From a virus (taxonomy: Duplodnaviria; Heunggongvirae; Uroviricota; Caudoviricetes), in IMG/VR virus record IMGVR_UViG_2571042690_000020: a stretch of DNA of 22,905 nt; one strand, given 5' to 3'. Below the pieces are notes generated by a model, which was given only the letters and a program-made list of their open reading frames with translations, had not been told where the DNA came from and did no database searches. Of this stretch, positions 1 to 13,923 are shown in pieces; the stretch's first letter is position 1, and the number at the start of each line of letters is the position of its first letter. A program made the translations under genes and the position numbers.

Positions 1-216
1 TTACTCTCCCCGTGCCGCCTTACGACGGTCCTCTCTGATTTTGAAATACAGGTTAGTCAGATATGTCAGCAGCCCAAACAGCAGACTCCCCAGCACGCCT
101 ATTGCCGCCCACTGAGACGGGGAAACCCTGTCCAGCAACTGCAGGAACCAGTAGCCCGTTCCCACCGCTGACGTGGTGTATGACACACCTGTTGTGATTT
201 TTTCCATCTGGTACAT
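1..216 (-). CDS. S: Class II pinholin, phage 21 S-like, with dual start (M-Y-Q-M)
   Basis: The C-terminal 71 aa of the 1..294 ORF ([71 protein letters not shown]) closely match my recollection of the S21 pinholin: two TM segments, a charged [13 protein letters not shown] tail, and Met codons at positions 1 and 4 as in the S71/S68 antiholin/holin pair. GGAG-containing RBS upstream of ATG at 216. The in-frame N-terminal extension to 294 is rejected. Confidence 0.75.
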
Positions 217-366
217 ACCCCGTCTCCCGTTATCCGGAAGCTGACAACAATAAAAAAAGCCACCAGTTAAGTACTGATGGCTCTGATAACTCATGCAGGC
301 ATCTCAGACGACCCACTGACACTACCGGTGAGTTTAACGATACCTTCCATTTGACTGGCTCACTTT

Positions 367-678
367 TTATGATGATGCCGGTGCATTTATCTCCAGCACC
401 AGACTTTCTATCTCAACGCCATACGTTGCATTTTTGGTAATATCCGTCAGCGTCAGCGCATTCAGCCCCAGTGTCAGACTGTCTTTTATGACCTGGAATG
501 CCGGGCCAGCCACTCCATTCAGTTTCGGAGTAACCGTGGCACTGCCGGCGGTGAACACCAGCTCCAGCGTCTGCCAGTCGTTACTGTAATTCCCGAACTC
601 GCCCAACTTTGTGTTTCCTGCTTTCTTGTGATGCATCAGATTCAGTTTGCCGTCTGTGGTCTGGGTGAAGAACGACAT
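367..678 (-). CDS. Hypothetical protein; possibly the detached C-terminal segment of the upstream esterase (frameshift candidate)
   Basis: 103-aa ORF starting 11 nt downstream of the esterase stop, in a different frame. Its reading frame stays open upstream to about 720, overlapping the esterase 3' end. No recognisable motif. Confidence 0.4.
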   Translation of the reverse strand: MSFFTQTTDGKLNLMHHKKAGNTKLGEFGNYSNDWQTLELVFTAGSATVTPKLNGVAGPAFQVIKDSLTLGLNALTLTDITKNATYGVEIESLVLEINAPASS

Positions 679-688
679 CAGGAACGGG

Positions 689-2167
689 TTACCAGTCCCG
701 GGACAGTCGAAACTTACAGCTCAGTCTGCCACCCCGTGTCAGCAGGGAGACTGCGTCATCCACCGGGCGCGTCAGGGACCAGGCTTTATTGCTCTGCTTG
801 GTGATCTTAAATACACCCTCTGACAACTGAATTCCGCCATTCTTAATGCTCCAGCCCTGCGCAGCAGCATCTCCGGCTGTCGGCAACAGGGAGATTGTGC
901 GTACGGATGCATCTTCAGACGGCCCCGATGGCGTGTCGCCGCCGGGCGAGGGTTTGATTTCCGGTGCCTTACCACTGATGAAGGCTAAGGTGCGACCGGC
1001 TACGTTCAGAATAGCGGTTGCCATACGATCGGGAATAATGCCACGACGCGCCCATGAGCTGAAATGCGTCTGGCGATTTGATGATACCCAGTTTTTGTTC
1101 GTTCGGGATGCCGAACCGTAATATCCCTCACTTGCAGCATCCGGATCTTCCGTTGGTGCGTTGGTGGAGGTATTGTTGCCACTACCATCGGTCAGGAACG
1201 GCACAAAGAAAACGTTGTCGCTCTCCCTGTTTTTGTACGCCCCGTAAATGGTGTCGTACTGCGTGCCGTAGGTGTTTTTCCAGTAATACGTCGTGTCACC
1301 ACAAATCCATGGCACACTTGCCGCTCTGCCTCCATGACACTGCGTGTTAAACTCGGTAATGTCCGCACGAAACTGTTTCAGCATGGCCGTAAACAGCGGA
1401 GGTTGCTGTGAGTACGTAGCGGCGCTCATGTCAAATTCGCCCTGCATCCAGCATACGGCCAGCAGCATGTTTTTTGGGTTTTTCTGCAATGCGGCCTTCG
1501 TGCGCAAAATCAGGTCCTGATATAAAGGTTTACCCACACCCCAGCGAGCCGAATCCTGACTGGCTCCTGTGGACTCGCTGAATGTCCCCTCCGCGCCCTG
1601 GGTGAATGCCGAACCACCACGACAGCATGGAACCAGTAAAATCCCGGCATTCTGTGGAATGTAAGGCAACAGGCGTTTGGCAATATGCAAGCCCTGTCCG
1701 ACACAGCCATACTGCCCTTTGCTCAGGTCTGCATTCGGGTGATTCAGTGCGCTCATATCCTGAACATCATGCAGGCAGTGGTCTGCCGGAATGATGTCGT
1801 TAAATGCGCATGCTTTACCACCGGGAGTCACTGTGTTGCGACGGGCCAGTTGCTTAATGCGTGGGTGGGGCGCATCGTAAGAATCCGGCAGCGGCATTCC
1901 CTCACCATATGACATGGCATTGGATTGACCAGCAAGTACCACCACGTAATACCACTCCGGCACGCTGCCGTGCTGGGGGGAATCAGGTGAGATGTCTGTA
2001 GTGCCATCGGCCACCATTGCCTGCATTAGATACCACGGGGTGCCGGGTTCGTAGGCAACCCGCGTCTCCCCCTGAAGATGCCACCCTTTCGCAAGATGTT
2101 CATTCACCTTTTGAGTCAGTTCAGCCTGTGTCATGGCTGTAATCAGTGCAAAGTTCTTACTGGTCAT
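689..2167 (-). CDS. NanS-p-like sialate O-acetylesterase (SGNH/SASA hydrolase with DUF1737-like N-terminus)
   Basis: 492-aa ORF. GQSNAMSYGEG is the GQSN block of SGNH/sialate 9-O-acetylesterase family proteins. The N-terminal ~50 aa (MTSKNFALITAMTQAELTQKVNEHLAKGWHLQG...) resembles the DUF1737 domain found on prophage NanS-p esterases. Its ATG overlaps the o-spanin stop (ATGA at 2164-2167). Confidence 0.65.
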   Translation of the reverse strand: MTSKNFALITAMTQAELTQKVNEHLAKGWHLQGETRVAYEPGTPWYLMQAMVADGTTDISPDSPQHGSVPEWYYVVVLAGQSNAMSYGEGMPLPDSYDAPHPRIKQLARRNTVTPGGKACAFNDIIPADHCLHDVQDMSALNHPNADLSKGQYGCVGQGLHIAKRLLPYIPQNAGILLVPCCRGGSAFTQGAEGTFSESTGASQDSARWGVGKPLYQDLILRTKAALQKNPKNMLLAVCWMQGEFDMSAATYSQQPPLFTAMLKQFRADITEFNTQCHGGRAASVPWICGDTTYYWKNTYGTQYDTIYGAYKNRESDNVFFVPFLTDGSGNNTSTNAPTEDPDAASEGYYGSASRTNKNWVSSNRQTHFSSWARRGIIPDRMATAILNVAGRTLAFISGKAPEIKPSPGGDTPSGPSEDASVRTISLLPTAGDAAAQGWSIKNGGIQLSEGVFKITKQSNKAWSLTRPVDDAVSLLTRGGRLSCKFRLSRDW

Positions 2168-2475
2168 TGTGTTACTCCCGTCTGGTGTGTCAGTTCGGCT
2201 ATTCTCTTATCCAGTTCAGCAATGGCCCGTTTATCCGCGTTACAGGTTTCCAGTGCATCCAGAAGGCGGTCGCCCCATATTCCGAGGTTTCCCCATGTGG
2301 GTGGGTCAGGGAAGGGGGGAGGCGTTACCGGCATGGTCAGCGTCTGCGGTATAAGCCGGACTGACGGCGCTGGCCCTGGCGCGTTCTGCGTGCCTGCGCA
2401 ACCTGTCAGTAAAACGAGCGTCAGGCAAAGCGTGGGCGCATTCATCTTTTGCAATATCGTTGCGTAGCTGTTCAC
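2164..2475 (-). CDS. o-spanin (Rz1/LysC-like outer-membrane lipoprotein)
   Basis: Signal peptide with lipobox (LTLVLLTG-C), a Pro-rich mature part (PVTPPPFPDPP), and a frame partly overlapping the i-spanin gene. GTG start with GGAGAGG RBS; an alternative ATG lies at 2445. Confidence 0.65.
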   Translation of the reverse strand: MNSYATILQKMNAPTLCLTLVLLTGCAGTQNAPGPAPSVRLIPQTLTMPVTPPPFPDPPTWGNLGIWGDRLLDALETCNADKRAIAELDKRIAELTHQTGVTQ

Positions 2476-2701
2476 GTCTTACCTCTCCGTCCTGATTGCG
2501 TTGCTGATTTTCCGCGCGGAGCTGAGCCAGCACCTGCTGCATATCCTGTACCCCGGCGCTGATGATATTCAGTGTGTCGACGGTACTTTTCAGGGTGCTG
2601 GCCTGCGCTTCGTTTCTGGCGTTCTCCCGGCCCAGCGACCACGACAGACGCATGGATGTAATCAGAAGGAAAGCGACGCCAAGCGTGGGCCAGAGCTTCA
2701 T
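2306..2701 (-). CDS. i-spanin (Rz/LysB-like)
   Basis: Internal ATG at 2701 overlaps the endolysin stop (ATGA). N-terminal TM segment (LWPTLGVAFLLITSM) followed by a charged coiled-coil-like region. The upstream part of the 2306..2845 ORF overlaps the endolysin and is rejected. Confidence 0.65.
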   Translation of the reverse strand: MKLWPTLGVAFLLITSMRLSWSLGRENARNEAQASTLKSTVDTLNIISAGVQDMQQVLAQLRAENQQRNQDGEVRREQLRNDIAKDECAHALPDARFTDRLRRHAERARASAVSPAYTADADHAGNASPLP

Positions 2702-3090
2702 GCCGGATAGGCTCCGTGTGGTAACTGAAAATGCGGTCCGTCTTTCAGGGTCTTCCAGTCGCCGCCCCATTCCACCGGAATATTCAGTTCCTGGCTGGCC
2801 TGTCTGAATGCTGCTGCGATTTTTTCGTACAGCGGCCATTCCCATGACACCTGGTTGCCGACATAAGCCACAACATCCACGGCATGCCCTGTGAGATGGC
2901 GACTGTTCATGGTCTGGCTCTTGCCTGTGGTCACGAGCTGCTTCTGACGATAACGACTGCGCAATCCTTCGGTGATACCAAAATCCACTTCCGAGATTTC
3001 CAGCGCCCGTCGGGTCACTTTCACCAGATCAGGATTTACACCCTGCAAATTCTTTTCGCTCCGGCTGCTGAATTTAAATGTGTTGCTCAT
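2698..3090 (-). CDS. Endolysin, peptidase M15 family (L-alanyl-D-glutamate endopeptidase type)
   Basis: 130 aa with an SRHLTGHAVDV zinc-binding block typical of LAS/M15 phage endolysins. AAGGAGAGG RBS; start overlaps the holin stop (ATGA). Confidence 0.8.
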   Translation of the reverse strand: MSNTFKFSSRSEKNLQGVNPDLVKVTRRALEISEVDFGITEGLRSRYRQKQLVTTGKSQTMNSRHLTGHAVDVVAYVGNQVSWEWPLYEKIAAAFRQASQELNIPVEWGGDWKTLKDGPHFQLPHGAYPA

Positions 3091-3410
3091 TCGTTCCTCT
3101 CCTTCACCCTGCGATCAAATATTGCAATAACCTTGTCGCGTGCTTTCTCTGCGCCCATAAAACCGATTGAGGCACCAAAAAACGTCACTGCATCCTCAGG
3201 GATCCCGAAGAAGCGCAGCGACCCGGCCACGGCCATGGCAAGAACGCCGCACGCCAGCGATCCCGTTACGGTCTGAACCAGTGTTCGTCCGTCATAAAGA
3301 CTCATCAGCGCGGAAATGCTGACCGCCGCGCCTACTGCATACACCGTTGGCAGGTGGTCAAAGAGCCACGCAATAACCTGCTCTGTGATCCCTGTTTGAA
3401 TGGTGCTCAC
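3087..3410 (-). CDS. Holin (HP1/P2-region holin family, multi-TM)
   Basis: Hydrophobic segments (AVGAAVSISALM, GSLACGVLAMAVAGSL, FFGASIGFMGA) and a charged C-terminus, immediately upstream of the endolysin. GTG start at 3410 with a GGGGGGAG RBS, just after the X stop; an ATG further in is an alternative. The part of the 3087..3629 ORF overlapping X is rejected. Confidence 0.55.
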   Translation of the reverse strand: MSTIQTGITEQVIAWLFDHLPTVYAVGAAVSISALMSLYDGRTLVQTVTGSLACGVLAMAVAGSLRFFGIPEDAVTFFGASIGFMGAEKARDKVIAIFDRRVKERNE

Positions 3411-3412
3411 TG

Positions 3413-3619
3413 CTACTCCCCCCACAACTGAATCATTTCTCGTTTCTTCTTCTCCGGCTCCGGCATCTCCACTTCCTGCCCGGCGTCCAGAAATACCTGC
3501 TGACAGAGTCCGGGGTTGGCATCCAGCACCTTTTCGGTGACGCCCTGTGTCGTGCCGTAGTACCGGAAACAGAGCGAATCCACGGTGTCGCCTTCCAGTG
3601 CCTTCACTTTCATCAGCAC
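3413..3619 (-). CDS. X: Tail protein X (P2 gpX-like)
   Basis: 68 aa (MLMKVKALEGDTVDSLCFRYYG...) at the P2 gpX position between L and the holin. Confidence 0.8.
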   Translation of the reverse strand: MLMKVKALEGDTVDSLCFRYYGTTQGVTEKVLDANPGLCQQVFLDAGQEVEMPEPEKKKREMIQLWGE

Positions 3620-4116
3620 AGCTCCGCAAACATTCGCGGTCGTCCCAGAATGTCAGAGATGGCCCAGCTCACATCGCGCCACAAATCCGATGTCTGTATA
3701 TCCAGTGCGTCCGCCCGGCGGTCGCCCTTGTCCGTTGTGTCCGCATCGCGGTAACGCTCCAGAATCAGGGCGCGTGTGGCGGTATAAACAGCATTGCGCC
3801 AGTGCCAGAGATTGACGCTTTCTCCGTTAATTACAGGGGCCGGAACATCGGCCAGCGTCTGATAGCCAGCCGCCTGTTGTTCCTGCTGCCATGCTTCCAG
3901 CTCGCGGGTAACGTGTGCTATGGCCCCGGTGGCGGTATGCAGCAGGCGGGAGGTGGTCACGCGGCCCGGCAGTCGTACCGCCAGACGCAGCTCGCGCAGC
4001 ACAATATCCGGCCAGAATGCACCCGCTGAAATACGGGTATCGCCATCATCGGTGTCGGTGATGTCGTCCTCTGCGGGGCCGGGGTTAGTTCTGGCAACCA
4101 TACTCATGGGGTTCAC
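3613..4116 (-). CDS. L: Head completion/stabilisation protein (P2 gpL-like)
   Basis: 167 aa, positioned between terminase endonuclease subunit M and X as in P2/186. Confidence 0.8.
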   Translation of the reverse strand: MNPMSMVARTNPGPAEDDITDTDDGDTRISAGAFWPDIVLRELRLAVRLPGRVTTSRLLHTATGAIAHVTRELEAWQQEQQAAGYQTLADVPAPVINGESVNLWHWRNAVYTATRALILERYRDADTTDKGDRRADALDIQTSDLWRDVSWAISDILGRPRMFAELC

Positions 4117-12644: not shown

Positions 12645-12959
12645 TTATTCTGGGAATAAGGTCTGAATATTCTTTTTTATTTTATAAAAATTGCATTCAA
12701 CTCCGCTAGGCTGATTATCCTGGTATGTTTCCTTGATGCTAACGGTATTGAAGGGGAGGTTGTCCTCTGGCCATTCGGCCATCCAGTAGGCAAATGCTGG
12801 GTTGCGCTTTATGAGCGCTAGCCCAGCCAGAAAGGCCGCGCGTTGCGCGCGGCTGCGTTCGGAGGCTGGCAGGCTATCGAGGTAATTGCACGCCTCCTGT
12901 TCACTCTTGACGGCGGCGGGCTTCAGATAGAAACTTATCCGTCTGGTTGGTGTCGTCAT
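12645..12959 (-). CDS. parR: ParR-like centromere-binding protein (ribbon-helix-helix adaptor)
   Basis: Internal ATG at 12959 with an AAGGAG RBS, 5 nt after the parM stop. The N-terminus (RISFYLKPAAVKSEQEACNYLDSLPASERSRAQRAAFLAGLAL) resembles plasmid R1 ParR as I recall it. Confidence 0.6.
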   Translation of the reverse strand: MTTPTRRISFYLKPAAVKSEQEACNYLDSLPASERSRAQRAAFLAGLALIKRNPAFAYWMAEWPEDNLPFNTVSIKETYQDNQPSGVECNFYKIKKNIQTLFPE

Positions 12960-12963
12960 TGGT

Positions 12964-13923
12964 TTACTCCTTGTCCATTGCGTACAGCCCATTAACCAGA
13001 GCAAACTGTGGCACCCCGTCCGCGATGAAAGTCGCATTAACTCCGCAGACTTCGCGGATAGCGGGTGCCACAATCTCCGCCCCTCCACCGACAACCATCA
13101 CCCGCCCGTAACCCGAAAAAACCGCCAGCGCGCGGATCACGCGTTGTTTCAGTGTTTCTTCCTTTTCACGAATAACCGCCATCAGGCTGGCGTAATGCGC
13201 GTCATTGTGGATGTGCTGGCGCAGCCAGGCTTCATCATGGCGATGTTCGATAATGGTATTGGCGATGTGGTGACTGGTGCGCATACCGTTAGTGGCCATC
13301 ACCGACAGTACGGCATCGGCCATCAGGGAAACGCCTACGTGTGGATCGCAAAACACCTGGCTGATACCTGCCAGTTGCCCTTGAACCTTTGCCACATCCA
13401 GCGTGGTTCCGCCTAAATCCACAATCAGCAGGGATTCAAACGGACTCATGTCAGCCAGTGCTTTAAAGCCAGCCGGAATGGATTCAGGCATAACCCGCAC
13501 GTTACGGATAGTGAATGCTTCGCCGTTCTGGTATTCCACCGGGCGCATAACGTTCGCTTTTTTGCGGTTGATGTTGGCCATGTCCGGCTGTGCGTTTGTG
13601 TCGAAATACTCGCTCAGTGGCAGGGTGACAACCACATCCACCTCCTGTGGCGTGATGCCTGATTTGACCAGCGCGTGATGAATGGCGATTACATTCACAT
13701 CGCTGTACTGGTATTGCGTGTCGGTCGTCTGGACAAAGCGATCGCTAACCGGATCAAAACCATAGCGCACGCCATCAAGCATGTAGTTCGCGGGCTGCAT
13801 GCCACCGAACGGCGCAGACCATTCCGACTTGAAGCTGTTCGGGCTGATGGCGTTGCGGCGTTCGCCATTCTCAGTCCATGCCAGCTTGATGTTGGTGGAG
13901 CCGTCGTCGATACAAATTTTCAT
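12964..13923 (-). CDS. parM: ParM/StbA-family actin-like segregation ATPase
   Basis: 319 aa. The N-terminus (MKICIDDGSTNIKLAW...ISPNSFKSEW...YSDVNVIAIHHAL...VDVVVTLPL) tracks my recollection of plasmid R1 ParM closely, including the phosphate-binding DDGSTN block. Confidence 0.8.
   Translation of the reverse strand: MKICIDDGSTNIKLAWTENGERRNAISPNSFKSEWSAPFGGMQPANYMLDGVRYGFDPVSDRFVQTTDTQYQYSDVNVIAIHHALVKSGITPQEVDVVVTLPLSEYFDTNAQPDMANINRKKANVMRPVEYQNGEAFTIRNVRVMPESIPAGFKALADMSPFESLLIVDLGGTTLDVAKVQGQLAGISQVFCDPHVGVSLMADAVLSVMATNGMRTSHHIANTIIEHRHDEAWLRQHIHNDAHYASLMAVIREKEETLKQRVIRALAVFSGYGRVMVVGGGAEIVAPAIREVCGVNATFIADGVPQFALVNGLYAMDKE

Follow-up and report, generated by a model that had tools for sequence, protein, structure and literature searches.

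A split NanS-p-type esterase gene in the lysis operon of a P2-like Escherichia coli prophage: a probable mis-join of two ST131 prophages

Introduction

Two groups of proteins are among the closest known relatives of the esterase considered here. NanS (YjhS; structure 3PT5), a chromosomally encoded 9-O-acetyl-Neu5Ac esterase, is the product of a sialoregulon gene and not a phage cargo; it contains neither a DUF1737 domain nor a jelly-roll. In NanS, Ser19 and His301 are used in catalysis, and Gln18 contributes to the oxyanion hole (PMC9063846). The NanS-p proteins of lambdoid and Stx phages, for example NanS-p of 933W, vb_24B_21 (gp84 of phi24B) and WP_016230612.1, consist of a DUF1737 domain, an SASA/SGNH domain and a jelly-roll in this order (PMC10462455). 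Their C-terminal jelly-roll has been described as a carbohydrate-binding module, and Y510 and Y515 are among the four aromatic residues of vb_24B_21 that were proposed to bind carbohydrates (PMC10462455). According to a 2026 preprint, the DUF1737 domain of phi24B NanS-p (gp84) binds to the capsid as a decoration protein. The corresponding genes adjoin the lysis genes of the late operon and follow the arrangement Q-stx-nanS-p-S.

An intact relative from a P2-like prophage is WP_000202148.1 of EC958 (EC958_RS04675), which comprises 625 aa and is annotated as 'DUF6645 domain-containing protein'. Its gene is flanked by lysC and tail gene R. Searches of the literature on NanS-p in ST131 or P2-like phages found nothing relevant.

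Here, we analysed a stretch of 22,905 bp of phage DNA (the window; IMG/VR record IMGVR_UViG_2571042690_000020), in which a gene of this type is split into two open reading frames (ORFs). The original prediction, made from the sequence letters, had described a NanS-p-like esterase that is translationally coupled to a P2-type spanin and followed by a possible frameshifted C-terminal segment, which a single indel around positions 689-720 would fuse to it.

Results

The relevant features of the window are listed in Table 1. Every gene in positions 1-3700 lies on the minus strand. The longer of the two esterase ORFs begins with 489 native codons, which comprise the DUF1737 N-domain, the SGNH/SASA catalytic domain, a linker and the first ~60 aa of the jelly-roll. 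These are followed by three out-of-frame codons (RDW) and a stop codon at 689-691. Between this stop and the ATG of the shorter ORF at 678 there are 10 nt, and the frame of the shorter ORF is open upstream as far as a TGA at 721-723, as had been noticed originally. The sequence upstream of the second ATG contains no Shine-Dalgarno motif. The Pfam match of the shorter ORF is confined to the second half of DUF6645 (profile positions 50-115 of 119). Taken together, the two ORFs align end to end with intact homologues of 617-631 aa, and this homology rules out that they are chance ORFs. They are two pieces of one NanS-p-type esterase gene.

Table 1. Features of the lysis region and of the split esterase gene (window coordinates).
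Feature	Coordinates	Strand	Evidence or remark
Lambdoid class II (P21 S-type) holin, 71 aa	1..216	-	Pfam Phage_holin_2_1, E=2.3e-32
Esterase 3' fragment, last 103 codons of the lectin-like jelly-roll (DUF6645), lambdoid-prophage allele	367..678	-	Pfam DUF6645, E=7.2e-10
NanS-p-type sialate O-acetylesterase, 5' fragment	689..2167	-	492 aa; Pfam DUF1737 and SASA
Junction	701..702	.	80 bp missing; lambdoid-prophage copy up to and including 701, P2-like-prophage copy from 702 onwards
LysC-type o-spanin, 86 aa, lipobox LLTGC	2164..2424	-	Pfam LysC, E=1.6e-13; RefSeq lysC at the identical EC958 locus
LysB-like i-spanin, 131 aa, DUF2570	2306..2701	-	RefSeq annotation of the identical locus; weak Pfam match
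M15-family peptidase endolysin	2698..3090	-	Pfam Peptidase_M15_4, E=4e-12; annotation of the identical EC958 locus
Holin of the P2-like cassette	3087..3410	-	Annotation of the identical EC958/strain 2/0 locus; Phage_holin_3_1 in related loci

The 492-aa ORF matches the Pfam families SASA (E=1.1e-11; 45.3 bits versus a cut-off of 24.8) and, with residues 4-53, DUF1737 (PF08410; E=8.1e-7; 29.3 bits versus a cut-off of 24). Residues 69-388 of the intact relative match the catalytic domain represented by the NanS structure 3PT5 (E=1.7e-125), and residues 430-622 match the C-terminal domain of NanS-p, 6YP6 (E=1.7e-29). The catalytic residues are conserved: Q81, S82 and H368, which all lie within the 492-aa ORF, align with Gln18, Ser19 and His301 of NanS. 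The predicted NanS-p-type esterase identity is thus supported, and the assignment to the family rests, at the level of sequence, on domain content and catalytic residues. An SGNH/SASA catalytic domain, a DUF1737 domain and a location in a late operon beside lysis genes are all present in the window. What is missing is a contiguous, in-frame C-terminal jelly-roll (DUF6645; 6YP6): residues 490-515 are deleted and the remainder is out of frame, whereas the 100%-identical intact relatives keep the domain. The intact protein can therefore be classified as a probable NanS-p-type sialate 9-O-acetylesterase with a DUF1737 domain, an SGNH/SASA domain and a C-terminal lectin-like jelly-roll. Over its N-terminal ~70 aa, there is essentially no sequence relationship to the lambdoid DUF1737 variants; a search for relatives of these 70 aa returned near-identical E. 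coli fragments only and did not reveal the origin of the domain.

The genetic context of the esterase is of the P2 type. Its ATG (2167-2165) and the TGA stop codon of LysC (2166-2164) overlap as ATGA (2164-2167), and a Shine-Dalgarno sequence GGGAG is located 8 nt upstream of the ATG. The esterase gene is translationally coupled to the o-spanin gene, as predicted. LysC starts inside the 3' end of the LysB-like gene, and bases 2306-2424 are common to both genes but read in different frames, which is the nested organization of P2-type two-component spanins. The exact LysB-like protein is indexed in 16,858 blocks of a public assembly collection; an exact-protein look-up of LysC gave no record. 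In the ST131 P2-like prophage, the cassette has the order holin, M15 endolysin, LysB, LysC and, as the last gene, esterase; 23 nt separate the intact esterase gene from tail gene R. In contrast to the lambdoid and Stx systems, with which the intact protein shares the domain order and the vicinity of lysis genes in a late operon, the phage is a P2-like myovirus and the esterase gene follows lysC instead of preceding holin S. The holin at positions 1-216 is foreign to the P2-like phage and 100% identical to the holin WP_000284510.1 of an ST131 lambdoid prophage. Between the 3' end of the esterase gene and the start of this holin, there is a strong terminator-like hairpin on the minus strand (256-284; 12-bp stem and T-run). 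In a lambdoid late operon, a Q-modified polymerase would read through it, whereas transcription of a P2 late operon would stop before the holin. At ~12645-13923, the minus strand of the window furthermore encodes ParM-type segregation and partitioning/stability proteins beside a replication endonuclease gene (annotation of strain 2/0), which represent a plasmid-like maintenance cargo in an integrated P2-like phage.

The intact gene is common. At least 80% of window positions 1-3100 is held by 373 of the 5,426 complete E. coli genomes (~7%), and in hundreds of genomes besides EC958 the esterase is a single ORF of 625 aa. The gene that underlies the split is therefore a common phage cargo that is already annotated in RefSeq. 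The premise of the original prediction, that NanS-p is normally a cargo of lambdoid prophages, is fair, but with these numbers the intact gene is also common in a P2-like context. The P2-like prophage has its esterase gene in at least two alleles, which encode 625 and 626 aa and show ~91% nucleotide identity. Among the loci compared, four (L015, L018, L020, L022) differ from three others (L014, L016, L019) by this amount over the 5' 1.8 kb, their context being otherwise identical. Because the alleles diverge in an identical context, the cargo esterase appears to be old and diversifying in the P2-like lineage.

All intact copies examined have, at the junction, exactly 80 bp that the window lacks, and the flanks match perfectly. 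These 80 bp are the same in both parental copies, where they separate the two positions that are adjacent at 701/702 in the window. The deletion takes away the last base of codon 489, the whole of codons 490-515 (GALTNNQFGLGIYLYTDVALPDVVAM) and a single base of codon 516; it thus removes 26 residues and shifts the frame. The first ORF accordingly ends with ...CKFRLS-RDW*, and the second one starts at the internal Met524. The deleted block includes F497 and Y502, which correspond to Y510 and Y515 in the 6YP6 alignment. Neither microhomology nor repeats were found at the ends of the deletion. A CAGTC pentamer occurs on both sides, and was dismissed because its placement does not explain the product. 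A CCCGGG (SmaI) site at the junction is a coincidence, as its half-sites are absent from both parents.

The two sides of the junction match different prophages. Window positions 702-22905 are identical to strain 2/0 (100.000% identity, 0 mismatches over 22,204 bp); over positions 702-3100, the P2-like prophage of EC958 is likewise 100% identical. The identity to the EC958 locus extends from 702 through 2167 to the integrase and includes the ATGA coupling; there, however, the esterase gene runs without interruption to a 3' end of its own, and tail gene R comes next, whereas the window lacks the 80 bp and runs into lambdoid sequence. For positions 1-701, the match is a lambdoid prophage of ST131 strain AR_0086 (100% identity); Stx2 phage 86 is 99.7% identical over this segment. 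Compared to the P2-like copy, positions 372-701 are 93.6% identical; the 21 mismatches are all located within 372-450, and at these 21 diagnostic sites the 3' part carries the lambdoid allele. Since the 3' segment and the downstream holin are identical to a lambdoid ST131 prophage, the window is a chimera that is joined exactly at the deletion. The original prediction had correctly seen in the 103-aa ORF the displaced C-terminal segment of the same protein, which aligns to the C-terminus of intact homologues, but had missed the foreign, lambdoid origin of this segment and of the holin. Positions 1 and 22905 of the window fall exactly on the ends of the genes for holin S and the P2-like integrase, at their stop codons. 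The window has thus been trimmed to gene boundaries, which makes its ends uninformative with respect to contig ends.

In EC958, the P2-like esterase copy (965,829-967,706, minus strand) adjoins dmsA. The lambdoid copy (1,454,188-1,456,041, plus strand) is followed by the class II holin, and its prophage adjoins ompW. The two copies are 486 kb apart in EC958; in complete genomes, the distance between the two loci is 486-490 kb, and their orientation is inverted. The junction sits inside a 447-bp exact repeat common to both esterase copies, which is part of a ~720-bp tract of 98-100% identity. Counted from the ATG, the two copies are unrelated over nt 1-210, 75-93% identical over nt 211-750, 62-68% identical over nt 751-1050, 98-100% identical over nt 1051-1770 and 65-87% identical over the last ~100 nt. 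This near-identical tract clearly points to a past exchange of sequence between the two paralogues.

The junction itself was not found elsewhere. A 38/40-mer spanning it is absent from the 5,426 complete E. coli genomes and the phage collection, and from IMG/VR viral contigs, GTDB representative genomes and JGI metagenome contigs. An exact-protein look-up of the 492-aa product among the gene calls of public assemblies gave no record. A link of holin S with the P2 lysis cassette occurs in none of the 5,426 complete genomes, irrespective of whether the 80 bp are present; their best matches to window positions 1-3100 stop at 385. In all of ten further loci with an identical LysB, the 80 bp are present, the 3' end is of the P2 type and GpR is encoded downstream.

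Draft assemblies repeatedly break inside the esterase gene. PV468777.1 starts at window position 704, the first whole in-frame codon past 702; the opposite end of this sequence is within a repeated gene too, a tail-fibre gene, and no att-like repeats that would explain the start at 704 were found at its ends. ON470599 and ON470623 end at position 917, and ON470626 starts at 513. In large clusters of 'partial' esterases, the proteins stop shortly beyond the junction, by a few residues; examples are P0018 (493 aa, 712 members) and P0035 (489 aa). An ENA scaffold (L010) has a gap of 58 N inside the 80-bp segment. This scaffold was considered as an independent P2/lambdoid hybrid and rejected, because it carries the lambdoid alleles at 818 and 977 and is thus the lambdoid copy, interrupted by N. 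A simple de Bruijn k-mer signature of two abutted contigs was likewise rejected, as no single k fits the distances of 251 bp and 116 bp between the junction and the flanking diagnostic mismatches.

Discussion

The split of the esterase gene is probably an assembly or joining artefact; we put the probability of this reading at about 0.68. The error would have been a wrong join made while a draft ST131 genome was assembled or scaffolded: two contig ends within the repeat would have been abutted and the intervening 80 bp lost, in which case neither the frameshift nor the 103-aa ORF would be biological. This reading is favoured because a real origin requires an inversion plus an 80-bp deletion at one base, whereas a mis-join requires only one error. 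Several observations count against it. The junction is placed asymmetrically in the repeat with respect to the flanking diagnostic mismatches, the window contains no N, the two paralogues do recombine in nature, and the start of PV468777.1 at 704 could reflect a real breakpoint that is present in a second ST131 sequence as well. A real junction, which we consider unlikely, would have arisen by recombination between the inverted esterase paralogues; this event would have inverted ~486 kb of the ST131 chromosome, with the 80-bp deletion occurring at or after the crossover. The arrangement in the window is indeed exactly one product of a crossover between inverted repeats, and the 98-100% identical tract indicates that the copies have exchanged sequence before. 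Moreover, the rest of the window is free of errors, which argues for a high sequence quality, and PV468777.1 begins at the same point. Large inversions also occur in ST131 isolates from chronic infections; those documented lie between rRNA operons (bioRxiv 10.1101/2022.05.07.487787). A real junction would, however, require two independent rare events at the same base, and there is no microhomology for the deletion. Furthermore, neither the junction nor a deletion-free hybrid is present in the 5,426 complete genomes, although ~370 of these contain the P2-like cassette, and the site falls in a region of recurrent contig breaks. Finally, the inversion would fall within one replichore, between dmsA and ompW, and intra-replichore inversions in E. 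coli are usually counter-selected.

Two further explanations take the reading frames at face value. In line with the original prediction, the first of them assumes a small sequencing indel (1-2 nt) in the vicinity of 689-720 and a gene that is intact apart from it. In its favour, the second frame is open to 721-723, and the break at 701/702 does lie inside the predicted interval. The base-by-base alignment nevertheless refutes a single indel: an exact 80-bp block is missing between perfect flanks, and the 3' part is lambdoid at 21 diagnostic sites. A one-base correction would fuse the frames, yet the product would still be devoid of the 26 jelly-roll residues; the probability of this explanation is practically nil. 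It is also highly improbable that the split is functional, with an esterase and a separate 103-aa DUF6645 protein or with programmed frameshifting. Gene calls on a few other contigs do list the same 103-aa ORF as a gene of its own, but these cases are deletion remnants fused behind a DUF968 gene or N-gapped scaffolds. The ATG of the ORF has no Shine-Dalgarno motif in front of it, its 103 aa make up only the second half of a single beta-sandwich domain, and all 100%-identical relatives encode one continuous protein of 625 aa. Programmed frameshifting would call for both frames to be intact in relatives and for a conserved shift site; the relatives examined have one continuous ORF, and a frameshift cannot restore the 26 missing residues. 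The C-terminal frameshift that had been flagged is most probably not genuine, and an artefact remains the preferred reading.

If the junction were real, the gene would be a pseudogene or encode a truncated esterase. Residues 1-489 would keep the catalytic domain intact, while the lectin-like module would be destroyed and two of the four proposed sugar-binding aromatic positions would be gone. The P2-like prophage would be severed from its tail genes and hence defective. A lambdoid holin would lie downstream of a P2 late operon, and the two prophages would be locked together by the inversion. Such a case would be of modest interest for prophage-driven genome rearrangement.

For the intact gene, a mode of action can be proposed. 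With its position at the end of a P2-type lysis cassette and its coupling to lysC, the esterase would be made late in the lytic cycle. As it has no evident signal peptide, it would presumably be freed by lysis. Judged from its family, the SGNH domain may then remove 9-O-acetyl groups from sialic acids, and the jelly-roll may act as a carbohydrate-binding module. By analogy to phi24B, the DUF1737 variant may have been swapped in as a head-binding module, by which a mucin-active esterase would be displayed on the T=7 capsid of the P2 type. A role in the virion is conceivable because this DUF1737 domain is divergent from the lambdoid variants and was found only in the P2-like lineage. That the intact esterase is a structural virion component of the P2-like myovirus and not only a cargo is nonetheless a proposition of quite low probability. 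A real 701/702 junction, as a 486-kb inversion in ST131 mediated by prophage paralogues, would be a second novel reading of lesser weight.

The esterase gene is also rearranged elsewhere. In other lambdoid prophages (L007:5986-6312, L008 and L009; Logan DRR387705, DRR393708 and DRR393713), the same 103-aa remnant is fused directly to the end of a DUF968 gene. There, the homology begins at window position 693; Q, the cargo region and the greater part of nanS-p have been lost, which makes these loci an independent deletion variant with the same C-terminal stub. A protein of 752 aa from a 6.6-Mb NCBI contig (P0011) is identical to the P2-type esterase up to ...LGLNALT and continues with the tail-collar (PF07484) C-terminus of a tail fibre; this fusion is either another rearrangement or another mis-join of the esterase gene. 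In the complete ST131 genome CP013837.1 (L013:4896-7394), no esterase is called and there is a single 1-nt gap relative to the window, which is either a frameshift or a long-read homopolymer error.

The main value of this analysis is cautionary: apparent frameshifts in this esterase gene should not be taken for biology. Between different prophages of one genome, the esterase paralogues have stretches of hundreds of bases in common, and contig breaks and mis-joins recur in them. The NanS-p-type esterase itself, of which we found no mention in the literature for this setting, is a stable and allelically diverse cargo of the P2-like lysis operon in ~7% of the complete E. coli genomes.
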